NCBI GenBank assembly: GCA_964512765.1
Contig: CAZEKF010000001.1
Coordinates: 66,366-130,365 of the forward strand
Reading direction: 5' to 3'
Length of the DNA: 64,000 bases
Source of the DNA: an uncultured Methanosarcinales archaeon
GTDB lineage: Archaea > Nanobdellota > Nanobdellia > Woesearchaeales > GW2011-AR15
The notes below the pieces were generated by a model, which did no database searches, was not told the origin of the DNA, and was given only the letters and a program-made list of their open reading frames with translations. A program made the position numbers and the translations under genes. This document shows, in pieces, positions 45,092 through 58,398 of the stretch; within the stretch, counting starts at the first letter, position 1; each line of letters begins with the position of its first letter.

Positions 45092-46738
45092 ATGACGAAA
45101 AAGAAAAGATTAATGGATGATGCAGATCTTGATCAGTTTGTTAGAGACTGTATTCTTATATGGTATAATCGAACTGATGCACAGCCAATAACCGAAGAAC
45201 AGTCAAAAAAAATTTACAGAACAATTGGTGATATGGTTAACGCACACGAATTAGTCGCAGAGGTTTTTGAAGCTACGCAAGACATAATTCCTTTAATTGT
45301 TTATGATGAAGTACGCGTTTTAAGAAAAGAAATTGATCAGTATGATTCTCTTCTTTATGTTTTACATGGTAATTTTGATTATAGAGATGCACATCTAAGA
45401 CACGGAGATTCTTTGTTGGCTGTTTTAGCACAACACGTAGACTTGGCTACACCATACGAAACATGGAGACAACAACAAAACTTTTCTAAAGTTGATAATG
45501 TCACTGAACAACCTCAACAAGCACAAGCATTTGAAGTTGAACCAGGAGAAGAACATCACCACGTAGTACAACAATCTGTCCGAGATGAAATTCCGGTAAA
45601 TGCATCAGCAAGAGTTGAGGATATGCGTCTTGACGGTCATGCTTTACAAATACCAGGGACAGGAGTAACAGTTGCCACTCAGCTTGACCAACATCAAATT
45701 ATTGTTTCAGGAACAGCACCTAATAATTTTGTTATTCATCTACCAGGAGATCTTGGTGATAAATTACAAGACGGGTTACTTATAGTTGATACAATCGATA
45801 GGTTTTCACCTGAAATACGTCGTTTTGATTTTTTTTCAAGAGCTGAGCGAATTGCAGCTGGGCATGAAAAAGGGATAGCTACAAACTTATATCCGTCAGG
45901 ACAAGGAGCTAGTGCAACAATTACTTTTCAACAACCAGCAAACTATTTGTTAGTGCCTTTAGATGGAGATGGTGCATTAACTTGTGAACGAGGGAGATTC
46001 AAAGGATATATTGGGACATATAATTTGCGAAGATTTGAAAGAAATTTTAATATTTCTAATTTTCTTTTGGCAAACTTTAATTTTATTGTCAGTAAGTTAT
46101 CTGATCAGCCATTATTATTTGGACCTGTTCAAAAAGTGAATGTTAATGGTCAAGGATACGCAATAATTCAAGCATCTAAGGGAACTCAGACAGTTACCAT
46201 GCCTCCCCATGATGAACAAGATTTAGAATCGCCTGTTATTGCATACAAAAATGTTTTTTTCAAAGATAAAGGGTTGCCTTATAAAATTGGCATGGAAGTA
46301 ATTACTGCAGGAGGGTTAGCATCATTAGCTCTTATTTTTGGTGATAAAGCACCAGAAATAGGTAAAATGATTGGAGGATTTGCTGCAGGGTATTATGCTA
46401 CATCTGCAACGGTTGGCAAACGTACTTTTAAAAACACTTTAGTTAGTATTGTTACTGGTGTTGCTTGTGCAGCAACTACACAAATTAATTACGAACCAGT
46501 ACAAGAAGTTGTTCAAAATATTGTTGAACCTGTTTATGCGGGATTAGACGGATTATTTCTTGGGAGAATTCTATATGGAACAATATTTAATCCTATTAGG
46601 ATTAAAAACTGGGGAGAAAGAATATTTAGAATGTTATACTTGAGCAAAACCAATAATGCATTGACACAACCAGTAGCCTATACTAAAGAGAAAGTTGGTC
46701 ATGTTATAGAAGGAAGAATTGGTAGAGCTAGGGAATAA
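45092..46738 (+). CDS. Hypothetical protein with a C-terminal glycine-zipper membrane region (548 aa)
   Basis: About 400-aa soluble N-terminal region, then GxxxG-rich helices (VITAGGLASLALIFG, IGGFAAGYYATSA). Composition shift relative to the core genome. Confidence 0.3.
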   Translation: MTKKKRLMDDADLDQFVRDCILIWYNRTDAQPITEEQSKKIYRTIGDMVNAHELVAEVFEATQDIIPLIVYDEVRVLRKEIDQYDSLLYVLHGNFDYRDAHLRHGDSLLAVLAQHVDLATPYETWRQQQNFSKVDNVTEQPQQAQAFEVEPGEEHHHVVQQSVRDEIPVNASARVEDMRLDGHALQIPGTGVTVATQLDQHQIIVSGTAPNNFVIHLPGDLGDKLQDGLLIVDTIDRFSPEIRRFDFFSRAERIAAGHEKGIATNLYPSGQGASATITFQQPANYLLVPLDGDGALTCERGRFKGYIGTYNLRRFERNFNISNFLLANFNFIVSKLSDQPLLFGPVQKVNVNGQGYAIIQASKGTQTVTMPPHDEQDLESPVIAYKNVFFKDKGLPYKIGMEVITAGGLASLALIFGDKAPEIGKMIGGFAAGYYATSATVGKRTFKNTLVSIVTGVACAATTQINYEPVQEVVQNIVEPVYAGLDGLFLGRILYGTIFNPIRIKNWGERIFRMLYLSKTNNALTQPVAYTKEKVGHVIEGRIGRARE

Positions 46739-48110
46739 CCTCTTCGTAATAATCTGTTATTTTGAATGAATCAATAATTGTTGTGTTGTTTCCACTCACT
46801 TGATGAGCATTACCTATCAACGCGTTTTCATGCACGTCTATAGTTACAAAGTGATAAATACCGCATTTTGCATATTTTTGTAAAAAATTTATGCTTTGCT
46901 CATGATGACGTATTCCCCAACTACAGTCTTTTAATGGACCTCCTCCTCCGCCTGTTACAATAGTATGAATGAAGGTATTTGGAAAGATAAAAGTTTGTTC
47001 AGCACCGTTTTCGGGTTTAGTTTTATGCCCATCGTCAGGAACAGCATACCTTTCATATGAATGTAAATGACCTGAAAACACCATTGTTACATCATATTCT
47101 CTGAATAAATCTTCATAAAGATTACTTACTTTGGTAGTTTTACTCTCACCCATAGTAGCTGTATAAAACGGCATGTGCATGTATACAATAATGTTTTCTA
47201 TACCCTCCATTGATCGTGCTTGTTGAAGATGATTTTTTACCCAACCAACAGGTGTATTTCTCCAATATTCGTTTCCTTGTTCAAATGAAATAAAATATGT
47301 GTTTTTGTATCTAAAAGCATAGTTTGTTCCGTACTGAAGATCGCTTGGCGAACCAGATTCATGTGTGTTTGAAGGAGGGAACAACTTAAAATTATCTCCA
47401 AGTCCAGGGTTGCTTAGAAGAGAACTAAGAAATGACCTATATTGAAGAATTCCGTCTTGTGCTTGGTCATGGTTTCCGCTTGTTGGGAAGAAAGGTATAC
47501 CGTTTAGTTTATTTGTGAAACACTGGTTAAATCTACTGTAAGCACCGCCTGACCATCCCCAGTCCATTAAATCACCAGTATGAATTACTAAATTTGGGTT
47601 AGTCTGTGCTAACAAAGAGGGTAAACTTGATCTTTCAGCACCGCCGCATGAGTTTGTTGCATACTGTGTATCTCCAACAACGCCAAATCTAAACAAAAAT
47701 TCACCGTCTAATGATTCTGCGACTAATTTGTCCACAGGATTTCCTACCCACAACTCTAGTTTTTTTGAAGCTTCTGGTGTAGGTGTTGTCATTTGCGTAG
47801 ATGTCAATAAAATTTCTTGCGTTGGTGTCATAACATCTGTCGTTGGTGTATATACTTGAGTAGGATTTAATAGAACTTCTAAAGTAGGTGTTGTTGTAAT
47901 ATCAGATGAAACCACAGTGCCTAATGTGAAATCTGTTGAAAAAGCAATTGGGCTTGGAGTGACATAAACTTGTGCTTGGTTCTGTGATACAGATGTTGAA
48001 GAAGTTACTGTGCCATAGACCCAGCCAACAGTTACAGCACCGCCTAACAGTACAAGAGATCTTACTAAACCATTTTTCTTTTTCCTACGCCTACGTCTTC
48101 TTCTTGTCAT
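46728..48110 (-). CDS. Arg-tail signal-anchored surface protein with a calcineurin-like metallophosphatase domain; C-terminal ...EEVIP tag
   Basis: MTRRRRRRRKKK plus TM. T/P-rich stalk. Metallophosphatase motifs GDTQY, GDLMD, GNHD, MHMP, GHLHSYER. Ends DYYEEVIP. Confidence 0.7.
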   Translation of the reverse strand: MTRRRRRRRKKKNGLVRSLVLLGGAVTVGWVYGTVTSSTSVSQNQAQVYVTPSPIAFSTDFTLGTVVSSDITTTPTLEVLLNPTQVYTPTTDVMTPTQEILLTSTQMTTPTPEASKKLELWVGNPVDKLVAESLDGEFLFRFGVVGDTQYATNSCGGAERSSLPSLLAQTNPNLVIHTGDLMDWGWSGGAYSRFNQCFTNKLNGIPFFPTSGNHDQAQDGILQYRSFLSSLLSNPGLGDNFKLFPPSNTHESGSPSDLQYGTNYAFRYKNTYFISFEQGNEYWRNTPVGWVKNHLQQARSMEGIENIIVYMHMPFYTATMGESKTTKVSNLYEDLFREYDVTMVFSGHLHSYERYAVPDDGHKTKPENGAEQTFIFPNTFIHTIVTGGGGGPLKDCSWGIRHHEQSINFLQKYAKCGIYHFVTIDVHENALIGNAHQVSGNNTTIIDSFKITDYYEEVIP

Positions 48111-48116
48111 TTTTAT

Positions 48117-49469
48117 TTAAGGTATAGCTTCATCAGGATCATACTCTTCCACATTTGAAGCAACATGAACATCAGATTGTAACCTTGCAACCCAGATTTC
48201 GCTGTTTGATTTTTTCAAAGAATAACTGTGCTGCTGGTCTATCTTACCATATAGTAACCATAGTTCTTGGTTCATTCTATATATTTGATTTGCAGAATAA
48301 TGTTGGAAATTACCTTCTCCATTAAGAACCCACTTACCTGTTCTGTTCCAATTAATACCGTCACTGCTATACGTCCATTCTAAATGAACATTACCTTCAG
48401 CATGAACACGATCAACGCCTTCTCTAATGTTACGTAATTCTGGTTCATAAATCCAAAGAACACCTAAATATCCATTCTGAACTTGTGTAACTGCCATACC
48501 ATAGAAATGCGTGTCTTTTCCTTCTTTATCAATCTCACTTTGGTTTGGCACAAGCACTAGCTGTGGTTCAGACCAATTAATAAAATCATCAGATACAACT
48601 CTAGCAACAGTTCTTATTCTTACACCTTCAATATTTTCTTGTCTTTTAACATATCCAACATATTTATTTAACCTGAAATCATAGAAAAAGTTAGCAACAT
48701 CGCTCCAATTTGTATATGGGCCACCTATTTGATTAAAATCAATACCATTTGTAGATTCATATGCCATAAATCCGTTGTCTCGTTTATATACCATTAATTT
48801 CATGGTCTTTGTACCATCATAAACAACAGACGTCATGTTAGAATTTTCAAATAAAATCCGTTCGTTACTCCACTCATTACCATTACCACTTTCTACAACT
48901 CTAATGCTTGACCCAGAACCCGATGCTTTATCCCAATGAGTGAAATAAAGAAAATAGTTGTCACGATTTTCTCCTTTTGGTAAAATTCCACCATACACAT
49001 ACTCGATACCTTCAAACCTGTTTCCTTCTGTAAAAAGTATAGAATTATCTATAACTCTAACACTGTTAATCCAAGAAGCCAAATCAAACTCAAGATTACA
49101 TAAATATTCAGGAGGGCATAAAGATGCTTCTATTGTATTTTCAAGTGTAGGTGTTAAGGTTACAATTGGTGTTGAAGTTAACAACACTTTTGGTGAAGGA
49201 GTAAGTATAACCGGTTGAGTAGGATCAGACACAATAGTACCATCTGCAAAAGGTTCAGAAAAAGTAGGAATTGTCTGGTTGTTGTCAGAATGTTCTTTTG
49301 GATTATAAGGTAAGATAGCAGCTATTTGGTCAAATATTGGTTCGTTAAAATCAATCTGGCTTATTACATAACCTGTGTATAAAGAAGCTCCTCCTATTAA
49401 AGCAACTGTTCCAATAGTTTTAAGGAAATTTCCTTTTCTTTTCCTTCTTCTACGTCTTCGTCTTGCCAT
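48117..49469 (-). CDS. Arg-tail signal-anchored surface protein with a beta-propeller glycoside-hydrolase-like domain; C-terminal ...DEAIP tag
   Basis: MARRRRRRRKRK plus TM. T/P stalk. W/Y/G-rich repeated blocks typical of GH32/43/130-type propellers (the fold assignment is tentative). Ends EEYDPDEAIP. Confidence 0.4.
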   Translation of the reverse strand: MARRRRRRRKRKGNFLKTIGTVALIGGASLYTGYVISQIDFNEPIFDQIAAILPYNPKEHSDNNQTIPTFSEPFADGTIVSDPTQPVILTPSPKVLLTSTPIVTLTPTLENTIEASLCPPEYLCNLEFDLASWINSVRVIDNSILFTEGNRFEGIEYVYGGILPKGENRDNYFLYFTHWDKASGSGSSIRVVESGNGNEWSNERILFENSNMTSVVYDGTKTMKLMVYKRDNGFMAYESTNGIDFNQIGGPYTNWSDVANFFYDFRLNKYVGYVKRQENIEGVRIRTVARVVSDDFINWSEPQLVLVPNQSEIDKEGKDTHFYGMAVTQVQNGYLGVLWIYEPELRNIREGVDRVHAEGNVHLEWTYSSDGINWNRTGKWVLNGEGNFQHYSANQIYRMNQELWLLYGKIDQQHSYSLKKSNSEIWVARLQSDVHVASNVEEYDPDEAIP

Positions 49470-49475
49470 TTTTAT

Positions 49476-51134
49476 TTAAGGTATTATTTCTTCATAAAAT
49501 TCATTTCCTTCGAAAATTCTATCTCGAACAACATAATATGCTGCACTACACTCAACAGGTGAGTCTGTAATGCCTTCACCAACACAACCATATTCAGGTG
49601 TTTTAAATGGAGATTTTACAGCACCTGTTATAGAAGTAGAGAGCATAAAATCCTTAACAGCATTTGCAACAGCTTCATAACACCTAAAACTGTCAAAAGG
49701 GAACCCTTCCACAGCTTGGCAACTCATTAAATTGTTTGTTAACCAAGCAAGTTGGTCAAGACTTGTGTCATAATTAAGTGGTTCCTGAAAATTTAATACA
49801 TTTATCATATATCTAACATGCCACATATGACCTAACTCATGTGCAAAAACTTTTGTGAATATTTCTTGAGACACTGTATCTCTGTTTTTCATTATAATTT
49901 CATTATAGGAAACAACACCAGAGTCTGTTGTATTTTGAAAGCTTGTAACACCAGTGTCTGAACACGTCACAATTAACGGATCATTAAATAATACATAAGG
50001 TCCAACTCTTGTAACGAGTTCTTCTGCCCAAACAGGAATTTCTTGTCTACAGTTGTTAAAAGATACTAAACCAAATTCATATGTAGGGGCTTGTGCAACA
50101 ACTACAGTCGGAGTAGGTACAAGAGGTGTGTTAGTCAAAGTAGGGTTGAGAACACCAGTTGGCGTAGCTATCGCAACTTGACCACTACCTTGGTCAGGTT
50201 GAGAAATATCTACTTCAACAAACACACCTTTGTAATCAGGATATAAACTGCTAAGGTTTTCTAAACTAGTAGATTGTACACCACCTGCTGCAGTTGAATG
50301 AATAACAGTAACACCGTTATTAGTTGGGATCGCTATTCCAACATGCGAATATTCTCTTATGCCACCTTTATCATGGTTAAGTGTCCATAGATACATTTTA
50401 CCAATTTCCATATGATTACCAATATCATCCCATTTATCAGGGTCATAACCTTGGAACTCAGTAAATCCGTCTATTGGTTTAAATATCTGAGAATTTGGAT
50501 CAATAATGTATGCAATGTTAAGTGTCTGGTCCCAACCATATGCTTGCCTTAAAACTTCGTCATCTGCAGGTCGGTCTGTTCTTTGTTGAAATGCGTCGTC
50601 AAGTTTGATATTAACTCTACTAATTGCTCTGGCAGCTTGTAACTGATACCCTGCACAGTTGAATCCAATAACATTATCAATTGTTGGTGCACCACCTGTC
50701 CAATAAACAAACGAGCCATTATCATCAATAAAACCAAAGTTCTTGTAAGGCACGCCAATGTACTGACTTGCGTCATTTAAAGCCATTTGTGCAATTTCGT
50801 CAACACTTTTACTCGTCTGTGTAAAAAATAACGTTGGAGTTGGAGTTAACATTAAAGCATCAGGCGTAGGAGTTAATGCTACTGGTTGAGTAGGTCCAGG
50901 GATAAGTGTACCATTCATGAAACTTTCAGGAAAAATAGGAATTGCTTGATTATCATCAGATTGTTCTTTTGGGTTGTAAGGTAAGATAGCAGCTATTTGG
51001 TCGAATATTGGCTTGTCAAAATCTATCTGACTGATTAGATAACCACTGTATAAAGCTCCACCTATTAGAACCAAGTTTACACCAGTCCTAAGACAACCGC
51101 CTCCTCTCCTTCTTCTACGTCTTCGTCTTGCCAT
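49476..51134 (-). CDS. Arg-tail signal-anchored surface protein with NlpC/P60-like cysteine peptidase and HEXXH zinc-metallopeptidase domains; C-terminal ...EEIIP tag
   Basis: MARRRRRRRRGGG plus TM. NCAGY (Cys) and HVGIAIP...IHSTAAGG (His) of NlpC/P60. AHELGHMWH zincin motif. Ends NEFYEEIIP. Confidence 0.6.
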   Translation of the reverse strand: MARRRRRRRRGGGCLRTGVNLVLIGGALYSGYLISQIDFDKPIFDQIAAILPYNPKEQSDDNQAIPIFPESFMNGTLIPGPTQPVALTPTPDALMLTPTPTLFFTQTSKSVDEIAQMALNDASQYIGVPYKNFGFIDDNGSFVYWTGGAPTIDNVIGFNCAGYQLQAARAISRVNIKLDDAFQQRTDRPADDEVLRQAYGWDQTLNIAYIIDPNSQIFKPIDGFTEFQGYDPDKWDDIGNHMEIGKMYLWTLNHDKGGIREYSHVGIAIPTNNGVTVIHSTAAGGVQSTSLENLSSLYPDYKGVFVEVDISQPDQGSGQVAIATPTGVLNPTLTNTPLVPTPTVVVAQAPTYEFGLVSFNNCRQEIPVWAEELVTRVGPYVLFNDPLIVTCSDTGVTSFQNTTDSGVVSYNEIIMKNRDTVSQEIFTKVFAHELGHMWHVRYMINVLNFQEPLNYDTSLDQLAWLTNNLMSCQAVEGFPFDSFRCYEAVANAVKDFMLSTSITGAVKSPFKTPEYGCVGEGITDSPVECSAAYYVVRDRIFEGNEFYEEIIP

Positions 51135-51140
51135 TTTTAT

Positions 51141-52694
51141 TTAAGGTATTAATTCATCTGGTCCGTCATAATGAACTGTTGCAAAATTTACAACTGACCG
51201 ACCACTCCAAGTATATTCGTACAGCCTACCATTAAAATAAATCTGTTGCGATCCTCCAGCGTCCATGTTAATTGCAGAATGTGCACCAATGTTGTCCATT
51301 ATTTCTGCAGCATTGCACAAAGTCATTGGTTGAGTTATCATAACAAATAAGGTATTATCATTCACGCCAATCACTGTTCTTCCTCTTGAACCCCATTTAG
51401 GAGAATGACAATCTTGTTTAATGTCAGGATAAAAATCACCGCCGTAGTTGCTTCTATTAAACAAAGTATTGTTACCAGAAACAGCGTATAATATACCGTC
51501 GAAGTTACTGTTAATGTGCCTAATTGTTACTCTACCATTTTCATAAACTACTAATGAAGGCTCTCTAGGGTTTCCAGCATGGACATGATTACGATGTACA
51601 TACGGACCTTTAGGAACAGATGAACCAGAGTCCCATTGATCAGCATTAACAGTAAAAATTACATTATGGCTGTTAGCATATCCTTGCGCAGTATTTAACC
51701 CACCAGGTGCAGAAGATCCAACATTAATGTAAGGACTACACAAATCAAATTTAAACAAAGTATAATTGCCATTATTTTTAATTATTATAGGCTCATCCCT
51801 TGGTTTACAGTTATTTGGTCCTTGTGATTCTTCTGTTGGTCTAGGAGTATGTGTCAATGTAGGGACAGGAGTTGGTGTACTAATTAGATGTTTAATATCT
51901 ATATTACCTAAATCAGGTGAATAACTTTTAACTGCATCTTTTAGATGTTGGTAAGGATAACTGTTATTTGCAAAGCGCAACATTTCTTTTTCAGCTAGAT
52001 CGTAACTGTAGTTTTCGAACTCCACCCTATATATACCAACAATCATACCTGCTCTATGCGCACCATGCTGGCAATGAACATATACCGGTTGCATAGCAGG
52101 ATCTTTAATAATTGTCATAATCTCTAGAATATTTTTGTTAAAATCATGATGTGTAGGAGATTCTGCATTCATTGGATATTTATCAATGTAAATCATGCCT
52201 CTTTGTTCAACTAATGATCGTTCATTAGGCATTCCTTGAGACAAATCTATAACTGTTTTAAATCCTTGAGCTTGTAAATAATCAAAAGCAGCAGCAGAGT
52301 CTGGTTGAGCACCTGCAGCTAACACACCAGGATCAATCCATCTTAAATGAGTTACTGGTGAACCTTCAACTAAAGGAGGAATTTCTGCTTTAACAACAAT
52401 GTCAAGCGTAGTAGTTGGTTGAGGTGTAGGTGTATGGGTTGGCATCAATGTGGGCAGAGGAGTGTGAGTTAATGTTGCTAAAGTTTCTGGTGTTATGTAT
52501 GGGTCTGTTGGTGCGTACAGTACTGTTGCAGTAGTATCTAAGATTTGCTGAGCAGACATGTTATTAACATGAGCAGATGCATGGTCCCTTGTTTTAAAAT
52601 AAACAAATGACGCCGCTGTACCAAGAATAAATAATCCAAGAGGTATAACACAACTATTTCTACGATTCTTTCTTCTACGTCTCCTACGTGCCAT
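51141..52694 (-). CDS. Arg-tail signal-anchored surface protein with a CX5R (PTP/DSP-type) phosphatase domain and a phosphodiester-glycosidase (NAGPA-like) domain; C-terminal ...DELIP tag
   Basis: MARRRRRRKNRRN plus TM. VHCQHGAHRAG is an HCxxGxxR P-loop. C-terminal AINMDAGGSQQ resembles the NAGPA/DUF2233 motif. Ends YDGPDELIP. Confidence 0.6.
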   Translation of the reverse strand: MARRRRRRKNRRNSCVIPLGLFILGTAASFVYFKTRDHASAHVNNMSAQQILDTTATVLYAPTDPYITPETLATLTHTPLPTLMPTHTPTPQPTTTLDIVVKAEIPPLVEGSPVTHLRWIDPGVLAAGAQPDSAAAFDYLQAQGFKTVIDLSQGMPNERSLVEQRGMIYIDKYPMNAESPTHHDFNKNILEIMTIIKDPAMQPVYVHCQHGAHRAGMIVGIYRVEFENYSYDLAEKEMLRFANNSYPYQHLKDAVKSYSPDLGNIDIKHLISTPTPVPTLTHTPRPTEESQGPNNCKPRDEPIIIKNNGNYTLFKFDLCSPYINVGSSAPGGLNTAQGYANSHNVIFTVNADQWDSGSSVPKGPYVHRNHVHAGNPREPSLVVYENGRVTIRHINSNFDGILYAVSGNNTLFNRSNYGGDFYPDIKQDCHSPKWGSRGRTVIGVNDNTLFVMITQPMTLCNAAEIMDNIGAHSAINMDAGGSQQIYFNGRLYEYTWSGRSVVNFATVHYDGPDELIP

Positions 52695-52740
52695 GATGTT
52701 CTCATCGACCAGTAGTAAATAGTTATATTTAAAGATAGTG
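52650..52740 (-). repeat. Copy 1 of an approximately 90-bp duplicated segment covering the leaderless promoter (TATA-like TTTAAATATAACT) and the first approximately 14 codons of the Arg-tail gene
   Basis: A 45-mer CATGATGTTCTCATCGACCAGTAGTAAATAGTTATATTTAAAGAT at 52692..52736 is identical to 54313..54357. The flanks are near-identical. Confidence 0.7.
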
Positions 52741-52785
52741 GGTTTTCAATATGATTTTACTGTATAATTGAAGAAGAATTAGGTG

Positions 52786-54315
52786 CTATGGAATAGGTTC
52801 ATCATAATTATATTCATAAGCGGTTCTAAATGAGCTTGCAATATCTATACTGTTTCCAGAAATTAAAACTAATTTTCCACTATTTGACCCATTCATGGTT
52901 GGTATTGTTAAATTAACATTACCTTCTTCATTTGCTTGAATAACATCACCAGTAAAAACATTTGTTAATATTTCATAAGCTGGTAGTCCATTGAGCGTAT
53001 AATTTCTGGATTCTTGTGTTAAATTGACTAGGTAATACATTTGGGAGTCATTAGGCCCTTGCCTGACCATGTATGCAATACCATTTTGGTTTCCATATTC
53101 TGGATTTGATCCAGTTAACCAAGGCATTAACGCATGAAGTTCATGACCAATCTCACTAATAGTATTCCATAAAGATTCGTATAAACATGGTTTATTATAT
53201 TCACATTCTGGCCAATCCCATAAGGCAATACCATTAGCACCGCCAACAATTGCTTCGTCAATTCGTTGCCTAAGCATACCTCTTGATTGATTATAATTAA
53301 AATGTGCTGGTAAAACAACAAATGTAGAGTTTGAAATACCAGATTCTTTTTTACTTGATAACTGTCTTACTGAATTAAATGTTTTTCCAGTTCCTGAATA
53401 GTTATGATAAAAGTCAGCACCCCATATATCACCTAAGAGAGTATTAAATAATTGATCAGAAGAATAACCAAAATTAGGTTGATCCATTCTGTGATGTAAT
53501 ATTAATGTGTCGTGAACTGCATTGTTATGAATTTTTTTGTGGAGCCTTGTAACTTTTTCAGATATTAAGTTCCAATTTTTAATTAAATTAGGTTCATCTT
53601 TTCCATAGAACCATAACATTGAAGGATGATTATCTACAAAATTAATGAATTCAATTAGTTCTTCAGGTTTTTCGTCATATGTGTCAAATCGAGGAATCAT
53701 CATCATGCCAAATTCTCTGGCATGTTCAAAAATTTTGGGACCATATGGCTGCATAACAATTGTGTTAATACATGCATTAGACACTCTTTGCCACACATTC
53801 ATATTATGATTTATTTCAGCATCAGGCCCAAAGTCAGGATTATCAAATGCACCAGGAGGCCTAGGTAAATAATATATTCCAAATGGAAAAAAACCTGTTC
53901 CTTGTTGAGGGAGACCGTCACCAGTAATAATTATTGAACCTTGATTTTCATAATTTATTTGATTAGCACCATTTGCATACCAGGAAGGAACACATATAGT
54001 ATTATGTTGAACTAAATCTTGGAGATTTTGGACTTGAAGGGTGGGCGTTAGGGTAGGTAATGGTGTTGGTGTTGAAGTAGGTAATGGAGTATGAGTTAAA
54101 GTTGGTAATGTTTCAGAAGTCACAATTGTTTGAGTAGGTACAAAAAAAGCTTGTTGTGCAGGAGTCGCAACACTATTTTGTTGAACAGATGCTGCAATAT
54201 TTGGTATTACTTCTTCAAACATAAAATATGACACAGTAGTACCTAAAATAAATAATCCAAGAGGCACAACACAACTATTTCTACGTTTACTTCTTCTACG
54301 TCTCCTACGTGCCAT
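52786..54315 (-). CDS. Arg-tail signal-anchored surface protein with a TIM-barrel glycoside-hydrolase-like domain (tentative); C-terminal ...DEPIP tag
   Basis: MARRRRRRSKRRN plus TM. T/P stalk. WFYGKDEPN resembles the GH clan-A NEP acid/base strand. Ends YNYDEPIP. Confidence 0.35.
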   Translation of the reverse strand: MARRRRRRSKRRNSCVVPLGLFILGTTVSYFMFEEVIPNIAASVQQNSVATPAQQAFFVPTQTIVTSETLPTLTHTPLPTSTPTPLPTLTPTLQVQNLQDLVQHNTICVPSWYANGANQINYENQGSIIITGDGLPQQGTGFFPFGIYYLPRPPGAFDNPDFGPDAEINHNMNVWQRVSNACINTIVMQPYGPKIFEHAREFGMMMIPRFDTYDEKPEELIEFINFVDNHPSMLWFYGKDEPNLIKNWNLISEKVTRLHKKIHNNAVHDTLILHHRMDQPNFGYSSDQLFNTLLGDIWGADFYHNYSGTGKTFNSVRQLSSKKESGISNSTFVVLPAHFNYNQSRGMLRQRIDEAIVGGANGIALWDWPECEYNKPCLYESLWNTISEIGHELHALMPWLTGSNPEYGNQNGIAYMVRQGPNDSQMYYLVNLTQESRNYTLNGLPAYEILTNVFTGDVIQANEEGNVNLTIPTMNGSNSGKLVLISGNSIDIASSFRTAYEYNYDEPIP

Positions 54316-54362
54316 GATGTTCTCATCGACCAGTAGTAAATAGTTATATTTAAAGATGGTGT
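54272..54362 (-). repeat. Copy 2 of the approximately 90-bp duplicated promoter / 5'-CDS segment
   Basis: See copy 1. About 4 mismatches over about 90 bp. Confidence 0.7.
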
Positions 54363-54441
54363 TTTTTATGAAAATTAACTCTTAATTAGTATCAAATAAT
54401 TTTAAATATAACGTGTCATTACTTTTTAGTAAGAATTTATC

Positions 54442-55818
54442 ATGGTAAGATTGAACATTAAAAAAAAGACTAGAAAGCGCTCAAAAAAAAGAAGCTCAAG
54501 AAAGACTTTAAGAAGACGACCTAGTTCAGGTAATTCTCTTCAAAATAAATTGTTAAATTTTATACCTTCAGAGGCACCTGCTCAACGTCCAGGACTTGAA
54601 TTTAAAGATATTGTGGGAGATCTTTTTCGAAGGGGACCATGGTACTTATTTACACCATTTGCTTTGGAATCCGGAGATGCAACTGTTGATATTAATCCTT
54701 CTAGTCCAAGTCACGGGCAAATCATTGGTGATGTTAGTCTTAATCCAGTGAATGATTATGCAATAAATCATGTTACTTTTGAAATTGGGAAATCTATGTT
54801 AAGAGGCATTGCAGCTTCAAAAGAAAATTCAATAGTAGATACAATAATGCATGTAAGTGTTTTAGGATTATCCGGTTATCAATTTTATAATGGTTTTAGG
54901 AGATTAGGACATTTTCTATGGACAAATCCTATTACAGGTATACCCATTAGATCCTTAATAGGAAATTATGCACCAGATTTAGCAATGGCAATTGACATGG
55001 AATACTTGGACTTAAATTCACAACCAGAACAGTACACACCAATGGGTTCATTATTTGTAGGTATTAGCAACATCACTAGAGGATTTGAAGATGGAATTCA
55101 AGCACTGGGACAATTATATTTTGATGTTCTAAGAATGATGGGAAAGGTTGCGGAGTCAGAACCTAAAAGATCTCTTAAAGATATTCTAAAAGATTTAATT
55201 CCAAATATGCCTAGAGAAGCACCTGCTCAACGTCCAGGATTAGAATTTAAAGATATTTTTGCAGACTTATTCAGAAGAGGACCATGGTACTTACTTACAC
55301 CGTTTGCATTAGAGTCAGGAGATGCAACTGTTGATATTAACCCTTCCAGTCCAAGCCATGGACAAATCATTGGAGATTTAAGCCTTAATCCAATAAATGA
55401 TTATGCAGTTAGCCATGTCTCATTTGAAATTGGAAAATATGTATTAAGGGGCATTGCAGCAGCTGAGAAACGTCCTAAAGTAGATTTGTTAATGCACGGA
55501 CTTGTTGGTGCATTATCTGGTTGGCAAATTGCATATGGTTTAAAAAGATTTGGACATTTTCTATGGACAAACCCATTTACAGGCATACCTCTTAGATCTT
55601 TTATAGGTAGTAATGCACCAGATTTAGCGATGGCAATTGACATGGAATATTTAGATTTAAGTTTACAACCTGAACAGTATACGCCTATTAGTTCATATTT
55701 TGTAGGAATTAGTAATATCACCAGAGGAATTGAAGATGGAATTCAAGCAGTAGGGCAATTATATTATGATACTCTTAGAATAATGGGACGAGTTGCAGAA
55801 CCTGATGATATGTATTAA
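54442..55818 (+). CDS. Basic-tail protein made of two tandem approximately 200-aa repeats of an unknown domain
   Basis: N-terminus KKKTRKRSKKRSSRKTLRRRP with no TM. Residues 44-258 and 259-458 are about 75-80% identical (EAPAQRPGLEFKDI...GDATVDINPSSPSHGQIIGD...). Confidence 0.4.
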   Translation: MVRLNIKKKTRKRSKKRSSRKTLRRRPSSGNSLQNKLLNFIPSEAPAQRPGLEFKDIVGDLFRRGPWYLFTPFALESGDATVDINPSSPSHGQIIGDVSLNPVNDYAINHVTFEIGKSMLRGIAASKENSIVDTIMHVSVLGLSGYQFYNGFRRLGHFLWTNPITGIPIRSLIGNYAPDLAMAIDMEYLDLNSQPEQYTPMGSLFVGISNITRGFEDGIQALGQLYFDVLRMMGKVAESEPKRSLKDILKDLIPNMPREAPAQRPGLEFKDIFADLFRRGPWYLLTPFALESGDATVDINPSSPSHGQIIGDLSLNPINDYAVSHVSFEIGKYVLRGIAAAEKRPKVDLLMHGLVGALSGWQIAYGLKRFGHFLWTNPFTGIPLRSFIGSNAPDLAMAIDMEYLDLSLQPEQYTPISSYFVGISNITRGIEDGIQAVGQLYYDTLRIMGRVAEPDDMY

Positions 55819-55829
55819 TTTAAAGAATT

Positions 55830-57314
55830 TTATCCAGTAATTTGATTTTGTTTGTTATGAGTTTGATTATGATCATATAACTCTTTTGTACTTAGACTAG
55901 TTGTTGCTGCAACTTGTTTAATTTGCATATGGTCATTGTTTGCCCATGAAGAAATTCTATTTACAGCTGCATGTATCTTTTCCATATCTCCTTTTGCGTA
56001 CATTCTAACACAAGCCAAACGGTAGTTAGGGGGAAGTTTTCTTAATTTTTTTTTTTTAATTTGTTTTACAGGATCTCTAAACAAACCAGTTTTCGGCATC
56101 CAGTCACCGTAAGCATATTCAGGTATTACTTCAAATACCTCTTCAGGATCAAATTCATCAATTCCTTTGAACATTCTTTCAGTCCATGTTGCTTCATCAG
56201 GCGGCATCCATGGTGCTATGGAACAGTTTCGAAACCTAGCAATTGAGTTGGCTCTAGGCTGTGGAGTGTACGGATATCCATACAATGGATAGTAAATTTG
56301 TACTTCTAATTCAAGACCACCAGACTTTTCTTTTTCTATTTCACTAACGTACCCAACTACTAAGTCACCGTCTATTTCAACAGGATTTAACTGGGAAGAA
56401 ACACCAGGAATGGGATCCCATCTTGGGTTTAGAGCTCTTCCCAAGAATAAATGATCAGCATATCTATCTCTGTATCCTTCCATTTGTGAAAGATGTCTTG
56501 GTAAAGCAAAAAGACCACCTAGATCATAAACTCTTTTTGAAAATTCAACTTCTAATTCCATCTGCCCTGTATTTGTATCATGGTCAATATCAGCAAAAAC
56601 CAAAGTACCCAAACTTCTATCAAATATTTTAGGCAAAGCATTTAAAAATTGAACTCTAGCCATTTGTTCTGGATCAAGTTGTAATATTTTAATTGCATTC
56701 AAGATGTATTTAGTAACATAGGTCATGGGACCTTGCGAAAGAATGTTGACGTTTGATATGTATGGGCCGCTAGCAAGTGCATTAATAAGACGCTTACCAA
56801 AAGCATCTATAGTAATTTCAGTCTTTACATCTCGATCTTCCACAGGATATTGTCCAATTCTGTATCTGTTTTTTGATGCTTGAATTTCTTCGTAGGCAAA
56901 ATGATGTTTGAGATGGTGAACTGAAAAATCTGTAAACAGTGTTGCAAGCATATCTGGACTTCCTGCCATTTTAAAATCTAACTCTAACTTTGCATACGAT
57001 CTGTTTGGATAAAGTTCTAACCTTGTGTCACTACCTATGTATTCTTCTTGTTTAGGAACACGTTGAACTATACTTGCAAGCCCTTTTCTAATTTTCCTAT
57101 GTTTTGTTTTGTCTAAACTAAAAACTGGTTGCTCAGATTGCTGTGGCGGAGGAGTGTCCCATACCATGATTTGAGGTTCTGTTTGACCTAAATCTGTAGT
57201 TATTTCTCCTCCTTGGGTAGTTGTTATTCTAGAATCGTTGGATTTTGGACTAGTCATATCGCATGAGATTATTAAGTTAATATTTAAATATTTGCTTTTT
57301 CTAACTACTTTCAA
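55830..57314 (-). CDS. Hypothetical soluble protein (494 aa)
   Basis: Long ORF with no TM and no recognised motifs. Island-type composition. Confidence 0.3.
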   Translation of the reverse strand: MKVVRKSKYLNINLIISCDMTSPKSNDSRITTTQGGEITTDLGQTEPQIMVWDTPPPQQSEQPVFSLDKTKHRKIRKGLASIVQRVPKQEEYIGSDTRLELYPNRSYAKLELDFKMAGSPDMLATLFTDFSVHHLKHHFAYEEIQASKNRYRIGQYPVEDRDVKTEITIDAFGKRLINALASGPYISNVNILSQGPMTYVTKYILNAIKILQLDPEQMARVQFLNALPKIFDRSLGTLVFADIDHDTNTGQMELEVEFSKRVYDLGGLFALPRHLSQMEGYRDRYADHLFLGRALNPRWDPIPGVSSQLNPVEIDGDLVVGYVSEIEKEKSGGLELEVQIYYPLYGYPYTPQPRANSIARFRNCSIAPWMPPDEATWTERMFKGIDEFDPEEVFEVIPEYAYGDWMPKTGLFRDPVKQIKKKKLRKLPPNYRLACVRMYAKGDMEKIHAAVNRISSWANNDHMQIKQVAATTSLSTKELYDHNQTHNKQNQITG

Positions 57315-57369: not shown

Positions 57370-58398
57370 ATGCCTAGACGTAGAAGACGAAAGAAAGGAA
57401 TAGTGTCACCTCTGTTAATAGTTCCTGTTGTACTTTCTGCGACTAGTTGTTATTTAGTTTATTCAGTTCTTAAGTCTGATGATGGTGCTCTGGCACAAAA
57501 CAATGTTGTAATGATAACCACAACCTCAGAATACACTGCTACTCCTGCATACACATTAACTGCTGTTCCACCTGAATTAACACCAGAGGCAACAGTTGTT
57601 TTACAAGATTCTCATGGAGAAGGTTTCCCTGCAATACCTGCTGAGTTATTTAGTGGGATTCCTTCTAACCCAGGGGGAGGAGCTTTAGACGGTAGTTTGT
57701 TGCCAACATCTACACAAATGCCAAGAATGGGCTCTGAAGATCAACAGCCAAGAGAAGAACCGAATAATCCACAACCTGATCTTGGGAACTGTGCTATTAC
57801 TTACCCGTTTCAAGGAACACTAGGAGTTGATTTTTCAAGAACCTCGGGACCCCATACTTATGGAGCAGCAATAAATGGGGTTTCTCAGAATGCAGAAGAT
57901 TATGGAACTGCTGCAAATGTTGATCCAGTAATAGCTGTAATCTCAGGCAAAGTACTTTACTCATCACATGCACAATTATTGATTGATGGTCCTTGTTACT
58001 GGGCTTATTATTATCATGTTGACCAAGACCTGAGATACGGTCAACAAGTTGAAATTGGTCAAGCTATTGGTAGAGAAGCTTGTAATGTTGATAGTACTTC
58101 AGCAGGTTGTAGTGGTCCTCACGTTCACCTTAATATTTACGTTAAAGCTCAAGGACGAAGTGTGCCATTATCAGCTCTTAATGTCACATCTTGGCCAAAA
58201 GGTAATTCATATAATCCCTTCCAGGAGATTAGCGTAGCTTCTGCTATAGATTTTTTAGTTGCAAAAGAAACTTTGCAGGGCTATGAAGCAACACCACATG
58301 CTTTTGTATCTAAACAATTAGCAAGCGGTATTTATGTGCCTTCTTCAAAGAAAAAAAATGTTTTAGATGAAATAGTATGGGACCAGCCAATTTTGTAA
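57370..58398 (+). CDS. Arg-tail signal-anchored M23-family (LytM/lysostaphin-like) metallopeptidase
   Basis: MPRRRRRKKG plus TM. M23 motifs YYHVDQD (HxxxD) and GPHVHLNIY (HxH). Ends DQPIL. Confidence 0.65.
   Translation: MPRRRRRKKGIVSPLLIVPVVLSATSCYLVYSVLKSDDGALAQNNVVMITTTSEYTATPAYTLTAVPPELTPEATVVLQDSHGEGFPAIPAELFSGIPSNPGGGALDGSLLPTSTQMPRMGSEDQQPREEPNNPQPDLGNCAITYPFQGTLGVDFSRTSGPHTYGAAINGVSQNAEDYGTAANVDPVIAVISGKVLYSSHAQLLIDGPCYWAYYYHVDQDLRYGQQVEIGQAIGREACNVDSTSAGCSGPHVHLNIYVKAQGRSVPLSALNVTSWPKGNSYNPFQEISVASAIDFLVAKETLQGYEATPHAFVSKQLASGIYVPSSKKKNVLDEIVWDQPIL

Follow-up and report, generated by a model that had tools for sequence, protein, structure and literature searches.

Five consecutive genes (genes 1–5) lie on the minus strand of the 64,000-nt stretch of DNA analysed here (the window), and their open reading frames match exactly the coordinates given in a preliminary description of this DNA. 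All five encode proteins that begin M-[AT]-R6–8 followed by further Lys or Arg residues, namely MTRRRRRRRKKK in gene 1, MARRRRRRRKRK in gene 2, MARRRRRRRR in gene 3, MARRRRRRKNRR in gene 4 and MARRRRRRSKRR in gene 5. The poly-Arg start that had been described is present in each, with measured runs of 7, 7, 8, 6 and 6 residues, respectively; the earlier comparison of these runs with cell-penetrating peptides and nucleic-acid-binding arms found no support. Nine to 11 positive charges precede a hydrophobic segment, the uncharged stretch after the basic start is 42 residues long in gene 1 and 21–22 residues in genes 2–5, and Thr, Pro and Ser make up 29–38% of the 90 residues downstream of that stretch. 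The modular design proposed earlier, in which a polybasic N-terminus, one hydrophobic segment and a T/P linker are followed by a different hydrolase domain in each gene, holds. Three more ORFs join the gene set (57370–58398, 58377–60632 and 62730 onwards, all on the plus strand; genes 6, 6b and 7), and the cassette can be written as M-x-(R/K)7–11, an uncharged hydrophobic segment of ~21–25 residues (42 in gene 1) and, in genes 1–6, a T/P-rich stalk. Neither these ORFs, nor the C-terminal ExIP tail that is the most distinctive feature of the set, nor its status as a species-specific island figured in the preliminary description.

Genes 4, 3, 2 and 1 form an operon in that order, with gene 4 first and a TATA-like box upstream of it. 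Gene 4 (517 aa; 51141–52694, minus strand) has a MAR6KNRR start, a TM segment, a T/P linker, a DSP-type Cys phosphatase domain (residues 116–244) with the motif HCQHGAHR, a second linker, a NAGPA phosphodiester glycosidase domain (residues 344–505) and the tail DGPDELIP. It matches PF09992 (53.9 bits against a Pfam cut-off of 25), PF22741 (44.4 against 27) and PF03162 (41.9 against 27), as well as the polymorphic-toxin DSP phosphatase model PF22785. Gene 3 (552 aa; 49476–51134, minus strand) has a MAR8 start, a hydrophobic segment, a linker and then two putative domains, first an NlpC/P60-type papain-like one and then a zincin, separated by a second T/P linker, and it ends in the tail EFYEEIIP; the papain-like motifs FNCAG...HVGIAI...IHS and the zincin motif HELGH were found by eye, and the matches to Peptidase_C92 (E = 0.0045) and Reprolysin_5 (E = 0.022) both fall under the gathering score. 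Gene 2 (450 aa; 48117–49469, minus strand) has a MAR7KRK start, a hydrophobic segment, a linker, a beta-rich domain and the tail YDPDEAIP. This domain is possibly a GH130/GH32-like propeller, given matches to a GH130 mannobiose phosphorylase model (E = 8e-5, far under the model cut-off) and to a GH32 chain (E = 0.012); no homologues of gene 2 were found outside its own species, and its single-sequence structure model, with a pLDDT of 36, is uninformative. Gene 1 (460 aa; 46728–48110, minus strand) has an MTR7K3 start, a hydrophobic segment, a T/P linker, a calcineurin-like metallophosphoesterase domain (residues 140–352; PF00149, 64 bits against a cut-off of 21.5) and the tail DYYEEVIP.

Gene 5 (509 aa; 52786–54315, minus strand) has its own promoter and encodes a MAR6SKRR start, a TM segment, a T/P linker, a (beta/alpha)8 glycoside hydrolase resembling clan GH-A together with a beta-sandwich, and a tail, predicted to be disordered, whose last residues are YNYDEPIP. 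The domains previously assigned to genes 1 and 4 thus pass Pfam cut-offs and that of gene 5 has a TIM-barrel glycoside-hydrolase fold, whereas the propeller of gene 2 and the NlpC/P60 and HEXXH domains of gene 3 are represented by sub-threshold matches and motifs. Gene 6 (342 aa; 57370–58398, plus strand) begins MPRRRRRKK (an MPR5KK start) and continues with a TM segment, a T/P linker, an M23 metallopeptidase domain (PF01551, 31.9 bits against a cut-off of 28.7) and the degenerate tail VWDQPIL. It also matches a Pgp3-like model (E = 1.6e-4) and a PHROG endolysin; as read from the sequence, the M23 PHVHL motif is present and the first Zn-ligand motif is non-canonical. The ORF of gene 6 overlaps by 22 nt, in a different frame, that of gene 6b (751 aa; 58377–60632, plus strand), which lacks a poly-Arg start and has a weakly hydrophobic N-terminus, a lambda-lysozyme-like domain (residues 234–344), a long C-terminal region without assignment and the tail DYYQEVIP. 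The lambda-lysozyme-like domain matches PDB entries 1am7 and 3d3d, named 'lysozyme' (E = 1.8e-5), and the phrog_90 endolysin (E = 1.1e-10). Gene 7 (601 aa; 62730–64000, plus strand, with its stop at ~64535 past the window) has a MASRAKRRRK start, a TM segment, no T/P stalk and the tail YNFDEVIP, and profile searches of PHROG and Pfam gave no family match.

Four further proteins are encoded among these genes. The 548-aa protein a548 (45092–46738, plus strand) forms the left edge of the block, where it adjoins CDC48; a signal sequence is lacking, a single Gly-rich segment around residue 400 is weakly hydrophobic, and profile searches, Pfam, NCBIfam and PHROGs among them, gave nothing significant. 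Family searches including Pfam and PHROGs likewise found no matches for a458 (458 aa; 54442–55818, plus strand), a475 (55830–57257, minus strand; 475 aa by the gene caller, the ORF being open to 57314) or a668 (668 aa; 60614–62620, minus strand). The N-terminus of a458 is very basic and the protein contains an internal tandem duplication of ~200 aa, seen at the DNA level as 300 nt of 79% identity.

BLASTP similarity among members is restricted to the N-terminal 63–102 residues, where genes 2 and 3 are 60% identical, genes 4 and 5 47% and genes 4 and 6 33%, and to the tail; the 35% identity between genes 1 and 2 is located in the linker. The genes are modular chimeras and not paralogues over their catalytic parts, and the term paralogous used for them earlier is wrong for those parts. 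The N-terminal cassette is lineage-specific and fused to differing hydrolase domains, whose relatives, where found and named, are bacterial. The nearest non-self homologues of gene 1 are 37–44% identical, the few named ones bacterial, and end ...FTI[EQ] without the poly-Arg start or the tail; those of gene 5 (~31% identical) also terminate ahead of the tail, and the signals on homologues of both genes are of the ordinary Sec, lipoprotein or true Tat kinds. Both distinctive termini of the island proteins are thus add-ons to the catalytic domains. No member matched the TAT_signal model or C-terminal sorting-domain models at E ≤ 0.1, although homologues of gene 5 do match the same TAT_signal model, a hydrophobicity scan revealed no C-terminal TM helix, and profile searches found no peptidoglycan-binding modules (LysM, SH3, PG_binding). 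The N-termini and tails would accordingly count as neither canonical Tat signals nor a known sorting signal.

Each of genes 1–5 ends in [DE]-E-x-I-P-stop (EEVIP, DEAIP, EEIIP, DELIP and DEPIP, respectively), an ending found in 6 of the 55 ORFs in the window against an expectation of 3e-5 per ORF (binomial p ~2e-20). The full pattern, [FY]-x0-3-[DEQ]-E-x-I-P-COOH, extends to gene 6b (YYQEVIP) and gene 7 (NFDEVIP) and is degenerate in gene 6. In genes 1, 4 and 5 the tail sits past the recognisable domain end; the NAGPA match of gene 4 stops 12 residues short of the C-terminus, and in the predicted structure of gene 5, the sole model for the tails, the tail is disordered with a pLDDT below 50. 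Internal copies are confined to island proteins: gene 5 has EEVIP immediately past its TM segment, and a668 has two tail-like motifs, PQEEIPF (residue 39) and TEEELIPK (residue 64). In one strain a nonsense mutation deletes the tail of gene 2. Four tails have no coupled downstream gene, and their codons differ, with all three stop codons in use among the tails (GTT ATT CCC TAG, CCT ATT CCA TAG, GTT ATA CCT TGA and GTT ATA CCC TAG in genes 1, 5, 6b and 7), from which we infer that the tail is under protein-level selection and would behave like a short linear motif. Most plausibly it is a docking, sorting or regulatory label read by a partner, perhaps one of five unassigned island proteins.

The DNA itself also carries repeats. 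The three operon junctions (48078–48134; 49437–49493, from the gene 3 stop to the gene 2 start; and 51102–51158, from the gene 4 stop to the gene 3 start; all on the minus strand) are 81–93% identical over 57 nt, reading ...ATA CCT TAA ATAAAA ATG xCA AGA... on the coding strand, and the 6-nt spacer is in frame, identical in the three copies and leaves no space for a separate Shine-Dalgarno site. A shared 5' module, comprising a TATA-like box (TTTAAATATAAC), a short leader and the poly-Arg/TM coding region, precedes and enters gene 4 (52593–52746, minus strand) and recurs at gene 5 (54214–54367, minus strand) with 87% identity. Boxes of the TTTAAATATAA type precede the start codon of every transcription unit, mostly 25–45 nt upstream. 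By these boxes, the island carries archaeal promoters, that is, native expression signals. Its GC3 equals that of CDC48, and its overall GC is above that of the flanks.

The island's host is a marine archaeon of low GC content that belongs to the Woesearchaeota (DPANN), its CDC48 being 75–88% identical to proteins named Candidatus Woesearchaeota or Nanoarchaeota, in keeping with the episymbiont-type source suggested previously. The block is inserted at a variable position flanked by CDC48 on one side and a conserved 135-aa gene on the other. In eight related Woesearchaeota (CDC48 86–88% identical) the corresponding position holds 0–2 genes or a set of unrelated genes, which makes the block a genomic island of ~20.7 kb specific to this species; it runs from window position ~45,000 to ~65,700, past the window end. 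The relatives' loci (127 kb, 246 ORFs) contain no poly-R/K ORF and no tail ORF, and the architecture is known from a single, essentially clonal species.

The island encodes at least seven enzymes predicted to be exported, and we consider it somewhat more probable than otherwise that these are membrane-anchored modular enzymes directed against bacterial envelope polymers. The polybasic end would be kept in the cytoplasm, with the hydrophobic segment serving as an uncleaved type-II signal anchor, and the stalk would carry the catalytic domain across the cell envelope or hold it above that layer. The M23 endopeptidase and the lambda-type lysozyme/transglycosylase would cut peptidoglycan, as probably would the NlpC/P60-like domain, while the NAGPA phosphodiester glycosidase, DSP phosphatase, metallophosphoesterase, GH-A glycosidase and possible propeller glycosidase would cut phosphodiester-linked glycopolymers and glycans; the substrates of the phosphatases and glycosidases need not be bacterial. 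Such a set may digest the envelope polymers of a bacterial host or prey, breaching it at a contact site, or may harvest cell-wall debris. The envelope-attack role proposed earlier is strengthened by the M23 peptidase and the lambda-lysozyme-like domain, both absent from that proposal.

It is unlikely, though worth weighing, that the proteins are instead soluble exoenzymes whose N-termini, though unusually basic, are Sec- or Tat-type signal peptides that can be cleaved off. The enzymes would then be set free to break down organic matter (necromass) in dissolved or particulate form, and the T/P region would be an inter-domain linker and not a stalk. The segments of genes 1–3 are Gly/Thr-rich and only moderately hydrophobic (Kyte-Doolittle mean <1.6 over 19 residues), small residues fit for signal peptidase come after the segments (for example GGA-S and GGA-L), and these segments could be cleavable signals. 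The distant homologues of gene 5 have true Tat or Sec signals, and among archaeal peptidoglycan hydrolases 32% have a recognised Sec or Tat signal (PMC12352652). Against release stand an uncharged stretch of TM length (21–25 residues or longer) and the lack of both an S/T-R-R-x-F-L-K consensus and a TAT_signal match. Moreover, a secreted-type protein in the same window, ORF 37479, bears an ordinary short KK-type signal, and the poly-Arg start is therefore not the organism's general signal style. The tail, for its part, could be a by-product of the duplicated junction, which would mediate termination-reinitiation within the operon and would have spread with cassette duplication, giving an ending with no protein function. 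The near-identity of the junctions and their invariant spacers fit this idea, but we think it improbable: genes 1, 5, 6b and 7 carry the motif without a coupled gene downstream and with differing codons and stops, conservation past the junction repeat takes in the acidic pair and an aromatic residue 5–8 positions from the C-terminus, and the internal copies occur in island proteins only.

That the island represents a virus or another mobile element, either integrated or degraded, with hydrolases as its lysis or entry proteins and with the basic N-termini and unassigned proteins as structural components, seems to us more doubtful still. A 20.7-kb species-specific insertion in a variable hot spot, the many ORFans with basic N-termini, the PHROG endolysin matches and the elevated overall GC all invite this reading. 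Nevertheless, Pfam, PHROGs and NCBIfam detected no integrase, capsid, terminase or replication gene, no tRNA was found within the window, GC3 is that of the host genes, and IMG/VR contained no matches to two island proteins or to the junction pattern. Murein hydrolases would also be useless for lysis of, or entry into, an archaeal host without murein, and one anchor and one tail common to seven enzymes correspond to no known viral layout. Very little probability attaches to a housekeeping role in which the archaeon would remodel its own envelope or glycans (S-layer glycans, or possible murein-like polymers acquired by transfer). Anchoring in its own membrane would hold the enzymes close to the producer's surface, and genes for UDP-GlcNAc synthesis and for many glycosyltransferases lie elsewhere in the window; however, the island is missing from eight close relatives and is therefore not housekeeping, and the M23 and lambda-lysozyme folds act on murein, a polymer that, to our knowledge, archaea of this group do not make.

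Enzymes against bacterial envelopes have precedents in archaea, so that the earlier statement that the architecture is not a described system applies to the poly-Arg anchor and ExIP tail and not to the general idea. Murein-lytic enzymes have been published from Woesearchaeota for which a predatory lifestyle was proposed, as excerpts of two reports describe (PMC9723730, PMC10936187). The AR20, Lake A (PMC9723730) and oxygen-deficient-zone (PMC10936187) MAGs of Woesearchaeota and other DPANN, with their lytic murein transglycosylases and 'vampiristic' gene sets, match the island's host at phylum level. There, as here, bacterial-type peptidoglycan-cleaving enzymes occur in murein-less archaea, and the enzymes, thought to be horizontally acquired, are read as tools against bacterial hosts or prey, the same reading as ours (PMC9723730, PMC10936187). 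The cases in these excerpts are single large GH23-type proteins (murein transglycosylases) scattered in genomes, whereas the island brings together at least seven different enzymes (peptidases, muramidase-like, phosphodiesterase/phosphatase types and glycosidases), and the excerpts make no mention of a common poly-Arg cassette or a near-universal ExIP tail. Archaeal peptidoglycan hydrolases that kill bacteria have also been published: Woldo and Danwoldo of Halogranum salarium, bactericidal by experiment, resemble the island proteins in placing a bacterial-origin M23 or glycosidase domain in an archaeon, in chimeric domain shuffling and in patchy distribution (PMC12352652). They combine a catalytic domain with PG_binding_1 modules and Tat signals and are released into the medium (PMC12352652), whereas the island proteins have no recognisable wall-binding module or canonical Tat motif, appear to be tethered by a long stalk, end in a unique tail and lie in a cluster.

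Polymorphic toxin and effector arrays share with the island an N-terminal export module that stays constant while the enzymatic heads attached to it are interchangeable, a tandem layout, with evidence of cassette duplication or gene conversion at the island's 5' module, and the PF22785 match of gene 4. Unlike these arrays, the island has no recognisable immunity genes and no known secretion machinery (T5–T7SS and the like), its heads are envelope hydrolases and not nucleases or deaminases, and its members share a conserved motif at the extreme C-terminus that is missing from polymorphic toxins. Short C-terminal motifs with dedicated receptors include the EEVD of Hsp70/Hsp90 with TPR domains, peroxisomal SKL with Pex5, and PDZ ligands. 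By analogy, the ExIP tail may be viewed as a free-carboxylate peptide of 5–8 residues, acidic then hydrophobic, that follows a folded domain, is disordered in the sole model and is common to otherwise unrelated proteins; it differs as a candidate label that would be extracellular if the topology proposed here is right, and we claim no sequence relationship. Archaeosortase/exosortase signals (PGF-CTERM, PEP-CTERM) are likewise short conserved C-terminal signatures on one organism's surface proteins. They combine a motif with a TM helix and a basic cluster, and a sortase cuts them, whereas the island motif is the protein's very end, no TM helix lies at the C-terminus and the membrane segment sits at the N-terminus; NCBIfam sorting-domain models did not match the island members.

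The shared poly-Arg anchor and ExIP tail are new and seen in one species only. Archaea of this kind have already been proposed to attack or scavenge bacteria; the island fits that idea, and the ExIP tail adds to it what may be an address label.

The five ORFs singled out in the preliminary description lie exactly where it placed them, at window positions 46728-54315 on the minus strand, and each opens with an extreme polybasic start: MTR7K3, MAR7KRK, MAR8, MAR6KNRR and MAR6SKRR in genes 1 to 5, respectively. These starts, with 9-11 positive charges, lead into an uncharged segment, which measures 42 residues in gene 1 and 21-22 in genes 2-5; of the 90 residues after it, 29-38% are Thr, Pro or Ser. 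The preliminary description missed a feature at the opposite end of the proteins, which terminate in EEVIP, DEAIP, EEIIP, DELIP and DEPIP. In the consensus for this C-terminal tail, an aromatic residue lying 5-8 residues from the end of the chain precedes [DEQ]-E-x-I-P-COOH, a composition that is acidic, then hydrophobic, with Pro last. We found the tail at the end of six of the 55 non-overlapping ORFs in the window, where ~3e-5 is expected per ORF (binomial p ~2e-20), and no Pfam or NCBIfam model matches it.

The family also exceeds five members, as three additional ORFs on the plus strand belong to it. Gene 6 (57370-58398) starts with MPR5KK and a hydrophobic segment and ends with a degenerate tail, WDQPIL. 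It is predicted to contain an M23 peptidase domain (PF01551, 31.9 bits against a cut-off of 28.7) in which the HxH motif is present (PHVHL); catalytic competence is only putative because the canonical HxxxD zinc-ligand motif is not obvious, the sequence being QNAED with a His 15 residues upstream. Gene 6b (58377-60632) ends in DYYQEVIP, and its residues 234-344 match the PDB lysozyme chains 1am7 and 3d3d (E = 1.8e-5), which we take to be phage lambda lysozyme. The alignment covers chain residues 25-129, with the region of the catalytic Glu outside the aligned stretch. The same protein matches the PHROG endolysin family phrog_90 (E = 1.1e-10) and has no match in Pfam. Gene 7 (from 62730; 601 aa, its full sequence taken from the parent contig) starts with MASRAKRRRK and a hydrophobic segment and ends in YNFDEVIP. 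Across the enlarged set the N-terminal charge is +7 to +11 and the uncharged segment spans 21-25 residues, or 42 in gene 1. Genes 6 and 6b overlap by 22 nt (window 58371-58398) in different frames with a -1 relation, an arrangement that is the same in several independent assemblies. No canonical slippery heptamer for a programmed frameshift from gene 6 into 6b is found in the 28-nt window in which both frames are open. Coupled genes, a split gene and a non-canonical frameshift could each account for the pair, which we treat here as overlapping coupled genes.

The preliminary description called the five genes paralogous, a relationship that the all-against-all BLASTP comparison does not bear out. 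Similarity is confined to the N-terminal 63-102 residues, with identities of 60% between genes 2 and 3, 47% between genes 4 and 5, 33% between genes 4 and 6 and 35% between genes 1 and 2, the last in the linker. The tagged genes are instead modular chimeras. The calcineurin-like metallophosphatase proposed for gene 1 is well supported: residues 140-352 match the full-length PF00149 profile at 64.1 bits (cut-off 21.5), and the expected metal-binding motifs GDxxD, GNHD and GHxH appear in the translation as GDLMD, GNHD and GHLH. Its nearest non-self homologues are 37-44% identical, the few named ones being bacterial, and carry lipoprotein or Sec signals. They end in ...FTI[EQ], exactly where gene 1 goes on with DYYEEVIP. 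Both domains assigned to gene 4 likewise hold, with CX5R phosphatase matches to PF22741, PF03162 and PF22784 (44.4, 41.9 and 41.8 bits, each against 27) and the HCx5R motif VHCQHGAHRAG, followed by a phosphodiester glycosidase domain at residues 344-505 (NAGPA, PF09992, 53.9 bits against 25, covering profile positions 2-166 of 169). The NAGPA match stops 12 residues short of the C-terminus.

Gene 5 has no match in Pfam, and searches of genes 3, 5 and 7 and of three accessory proteins against PDB sequences gave nothing significant. A HMMER scan of 1.84 billion representatives returned seven distant relatives of the gene 5 catalytic domain, whose alignment shows the invariant motifs YG-DEP and GAxGI-WD. 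These relatives carry Sec-type or true Tat signals (SRRDFLK, with a Pfam TAT_signal match) and end ~20 residues before the gene 5 tail, which none of them possesses. An AF2 model built on this alignment (pLDDT 68, pTM 0.70) starts with a single TM helix (residues 7-35) and a disordered linker (37-106), which lead to a (beta/alpha)8 barrel and a beta-sandwich; its flexible, disordered tail is the only view of the tail that a model affords. Clan GH-A, to which gene 5 is putatively assigned, would be marked by a TIM barrel like that of GH-A families, in which strand 4 is followed by an NEP-like motif with the acid/base Glu and strand 7 by the nucleophile. The identities of the remaining domains are tentative, and gene 7 and the rest of gene 6b received no domain assignment. 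The putative NlpC/P60 domain of gene 3 rests on a sub-threshold match to Peptidase_C92, a permuted NlpC/P60 family (17.5 bits against 27), and on the motifs FNCAG, HVGIAI and IHS recognised by eye, and its C-terminal HEXXH zincin on a sub-threshold match to Reprolysin_5 (15.4 bits against 27) with a visible HELGH but no assigned third ligand. The possible five-bladed beta-propeller of gene 2 has only weak, partial matches (22 bits to a GH130 model with a cut-off of 450; GH32, E = 0.012), none in Pfam, and no homologue was found outside its own species; a single-sequence AF2 model was unusable (pLDDT 36). Homologue searches with genes 1 and 2 returned no relative with a poly-Arg start or tail. 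Both ends of the proteins are grafts on the catalytic domains.

Cassette duplication or gene conversion is indicated by the DNA itself. Over 154 nt that take in the promoter, the 5' modules of genes 4 and 5 share 87% identity; for genes 2 and 3 the figure is 78% over 193 nt. The three junctions internal to the operon of genes 4-3-2-1 (...ATA CCT TAA ATAAAA ATG GCA AGA CGA AGA CGT...) are 81-93% identical over 57 nt. The genes of this operon are separated by in-frame 6-nt spacers that leave no space for a ribosome-binding site, and the junction may therefore be conserved for termination-reinitiation. Scanning with the degenerate pattern E-x-I-P-stop, 6 nt, M-x-R5 gave two matches in 185,579 species genomes, eight in JGI metagenome contigs and none in IMG/VR; the source contig was not returned either, which makes this a weak negative. 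We dismissed the ten matches as chance occurrences in high-GC DNA without real ORFs. The seven poly-Arg genes mix AGA, CGT, AGG and CGA in the Arg runs of their first 14 codons, with CGT accounting for 12 of 48 Arg codons in the tracts as against 9 of 95 in the rest of these genes. Such mixing interrupts what would be AGA repeats and may reflect slippage avoidance or a role in translation.

Such tight junctions raise the question of whether the tail is a by-product of Shine-Dalgarno sequences or translational coupling. Genes 1, 5, 6b and 7 have no coupled gene downstream and nevertheless keep the tail, with differing codons and all three stop codons in use, so that selection appears to act on the peptide and the coupling explanation is largely rejected. 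The tail also differs from the sorting domains recognised by archaeosortases and exosortases, in which a C-terminal TM helix and basic residues come after a signature motif and a cognate sortase gene exists; here the motif forms the last residues of the protein. Known C-terminal sorting domains are excluded because the tagged proteins have no C-terminal hydrophobic segment and no match to an NCBIfam sorting-domain model. Internal copies of [DEQ]E.IP occur, among the ~20,000 residues of the 55 window ORFs, in island proteins only, with ~0.6 copies expected window-wide. One, FEEVIPN, lies at residues 34-38 of gene 5, directly after the TM segment (window 54214-54216 region), and two lie in the N-terminal region of a668, an ORFan of 668 aa (PQEEIPF at residues 39-45 and TEEELIPK at 64-71, window ~62410-62505). 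Although few in number, these copies hint at a short linear motif that has a reader. We favour, by inference, a role for the tail as a docking, sorting or latency label. Searches of the literature on poly-arginine in DPANN archaea and on the tail pentapeptides found nothing relevant. One metagenome population, compared at locus L003, carries a TTA to TAA change in gene 2 (~48181) that deletes the last 21 residues including the tail, as well as a 9-nt in-frame deletion in gene 1 (~46880); the remaining sampled populations are 100% identical across 6.8 kb.

At the N-terminus, we looked for a type-II (N-in) anchor as positive charge preceding a single TM-length segment of at least ~20 residues, with no signal-peptidase cleavage. 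The most economical reading is that the proteins are type-II anchored, stalk-borne exo-enzymes: the N-terminus, with its charge of +7 to +11, would be kept inside the cell, the 21-25-residue segment would cross the membrane, and the Thr/Pro stalk would hold the catalytic head outward. Signal peptidase may instead cleave the N-termini, most plausibly those of genes 1-3, where the hydrophobic segments are Gly-rich and only moderately hydrophobic. A canonical Tat signal would combine an S/T-R-R-x-F-L-K consensus with a mildly hydrophobic h-region and an AxA cleavage site, in a genome encoding TatA/TatC, and it is excluded at the motif and HMM level: none of the eight proteins matches TAT_signal (PF10518) or an NCBIfam Tat model at E <= 0.1, and the same TAT_signal model does match the gene 5 homologues P0269 and P0271.

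The window is archaeal, containing SecY, aIF5B, CDC48 and aEF-1beta, and proteins named Candidatus Woesearchaeota or Nanoarchaeota share 75-88% identity with its CDC48. The same contig recurs at 99.85-100% identity in several metagenomes. We inspected eight relatives, with CDC48 proteins 86-88% identical to that of the window, at the corresponding site. A conserved gene of 135-139 aa directly adjoins CDC48 in two of them (locus L024 and the P0163 contig), and in five others one or two small variable genes lie between the two. No homologous island was found by synteny in the eight relatives, and none of 246 ORFs in 127 kb of their loci has a poly-Arg/Lys start or the tail. Since these loci lack the block, the stretch from ~45,000 to ~65,700 is a species-specific insertion of ~20.7 kb at a variable hot spot. 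A functional meaning for the adjacency to CDC48 is rejected, as in the relatives this is merely the insertion site. In one relative (L025:1700-9900, CDC48 87% identical) the same hot spot holds a different island of ~8 kb with seven ORFans that have no similarity to those of the window; the last of them, of 328 aa, combines several hydrophobic segments with a C-terminal region rich in Cys and Asp. Accessory surface genes in general seem to land at the site next to CDC48. Several Woesearchaeota CDC48 homologues (P0238, P0254, P0260 and P0261) are 1225-1262 aa long with precomputed matches to PF14890 and PF14528, which we take to be intein and LAGLIDADG-type families, and are therefore probably intein-containing alleles. 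The window's own CDC48, at 759 aa, has no intein. A minus-strand ORF of 337 aa (40392-41405), flanked by the AP-endonuclease and aEF-1beta genes, has a basic N-terminus and only a faint LAGLIDADG_3 match, and may be the remnant of a free-standing homing endonuclease.

Besides the eight tagged ORFs, the island contains five ORFans (a548, a458, a475, a668 and a340) with no match in Pfam, NCBIfam, PHROGs or PADLOC; a comparison of three of them with PDB sequences gave no result either. The gene for a458 carries an internal tandem duplication (54561-54860 and 55206-55505, 300 nt at 79% identity), giving two protein repeats of ~200 aa, and the very basic segment at its N-terminus, MVRLNIKKKTRKRSKKRSSRKTLRRRP, is not accompanied by a hydrophobic segment. 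A provirus is rejected as the source of the island, as PHROGs, Pfam, NCBIfam, PADLOC and IMG/VR reveal nothing viral beyond endolysin-type domains. Integrase, capsid and terminase genes are absent from the Pfam, NCBIfam and PHROGs results, no tRNA was found in the window, and IMG/VR gave no matches to two island proteins or to the junction pattern. Overall GC rises from ~0.30 (window 1-42000) to ~0.35-0.39 from CDC48 onwards (42000-64000). The GC3 of the island genes (0.16-0.25) matches that of the host CDC48 (0.225), so that the step reflects amino-acid composition, with fewer K/N/I-rich proteins, and a recent foreign origin is rejected on compositional grounds. A TTTAAATATAA-type box precedes the ATG of every transcription unit, mostly at a distance of 25-45 nt, which indicates that the island is wired for archaeal transcription; its transcripts probably have short leaders.

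The enzyme mix (M23, a lambda-lysozyme-like domain, a probable NlpC/P60, an NAGPA-type phosphodiester glycosidase, two types of phosphoesterase and a putative GH-A) points to polymers of the bacterial envelope as the likely targets. Murein synthesis is not known from archaea of this group. The island is dispensable in relatives, which makes a housekeeping role unlikely; it would serve in attack on a bacterial partner or in scavenging wall debris, and the sequence fits either. The preliminary description did not recognise the architecture as a known system; the functional theme is already known from published archaeal murein and peptidoglycan hydrolases. Two papers describe murein-lytic transglycosylases and a proposed 'vampiristic' lifestyle in Woesearchaeota (PMC9723730; PMC10936187), and killing of bacteria by archaeal peptidoglycan hydrolases has been demonstrated (PMC12352652). 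The latter work reports M23 domains in four Nanoarchaeia genomes and Sec or Tat signals on a third of the archaeal peptidoglycan hydrolases, and defines a modular peptidoglycan hydrolase as a cleaving catalytic domain and a cell-wall-binding domain in one protein (PMC12352652). The tagged island proteins differ in having catalytic domains without such a module, as no LysM, SH3, PG_binding or similar domain matches at E <= 0.1 (Pfam). What appears to be new is that one private island gathers at least seven different enzymes, together with their common, extreme poly-Arg anchor cassette and the ExIP C-terminal tail, an architecture seen so far in one essentially clonal species. The original observation is thus confirmed and extended, and its interpretation as a surface-displayed degradative arsenal is supported in part.

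Parasitism or predation on bacteria by DPANN archaea and Woesearchaeota is debated, and the case for it has been built mostly on single murein-lytic genes in MAGs. The island provides a compact, assayable set of candidate enzymes (peptidoglycan endopeptidase, muramidase-like, phosphodiester glycosidase, phosphatases and glycosidases) under native archaeal promoters, together with an apparently new kind of label, in which an extreme polybasic anchor and a free-carboxylate ExIP tail are borne by unrelated, probably transferred domains. A bolder and, in our estimate, improbable proposal is that the poly-Arg/TM start and the [FY]x[DEQ]ExIP-COOH tail form the two-part label of a new archaeal sorting or docking route, with the five ORFans as its machinery, that places or activates hydrolases of the bacterial wall, or hands them over, where a DPANN cell touches a bacterial host. 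Were this so, the block would be a self-contained, horizontally mobile 'attack island'. If the tail is a sorting or docking signal, it would offer a new handle on archaeal protein trafficking, in which the routing of surface proteins is poorly known, and a sequence signature for interaction effectors in DPANN genomes.
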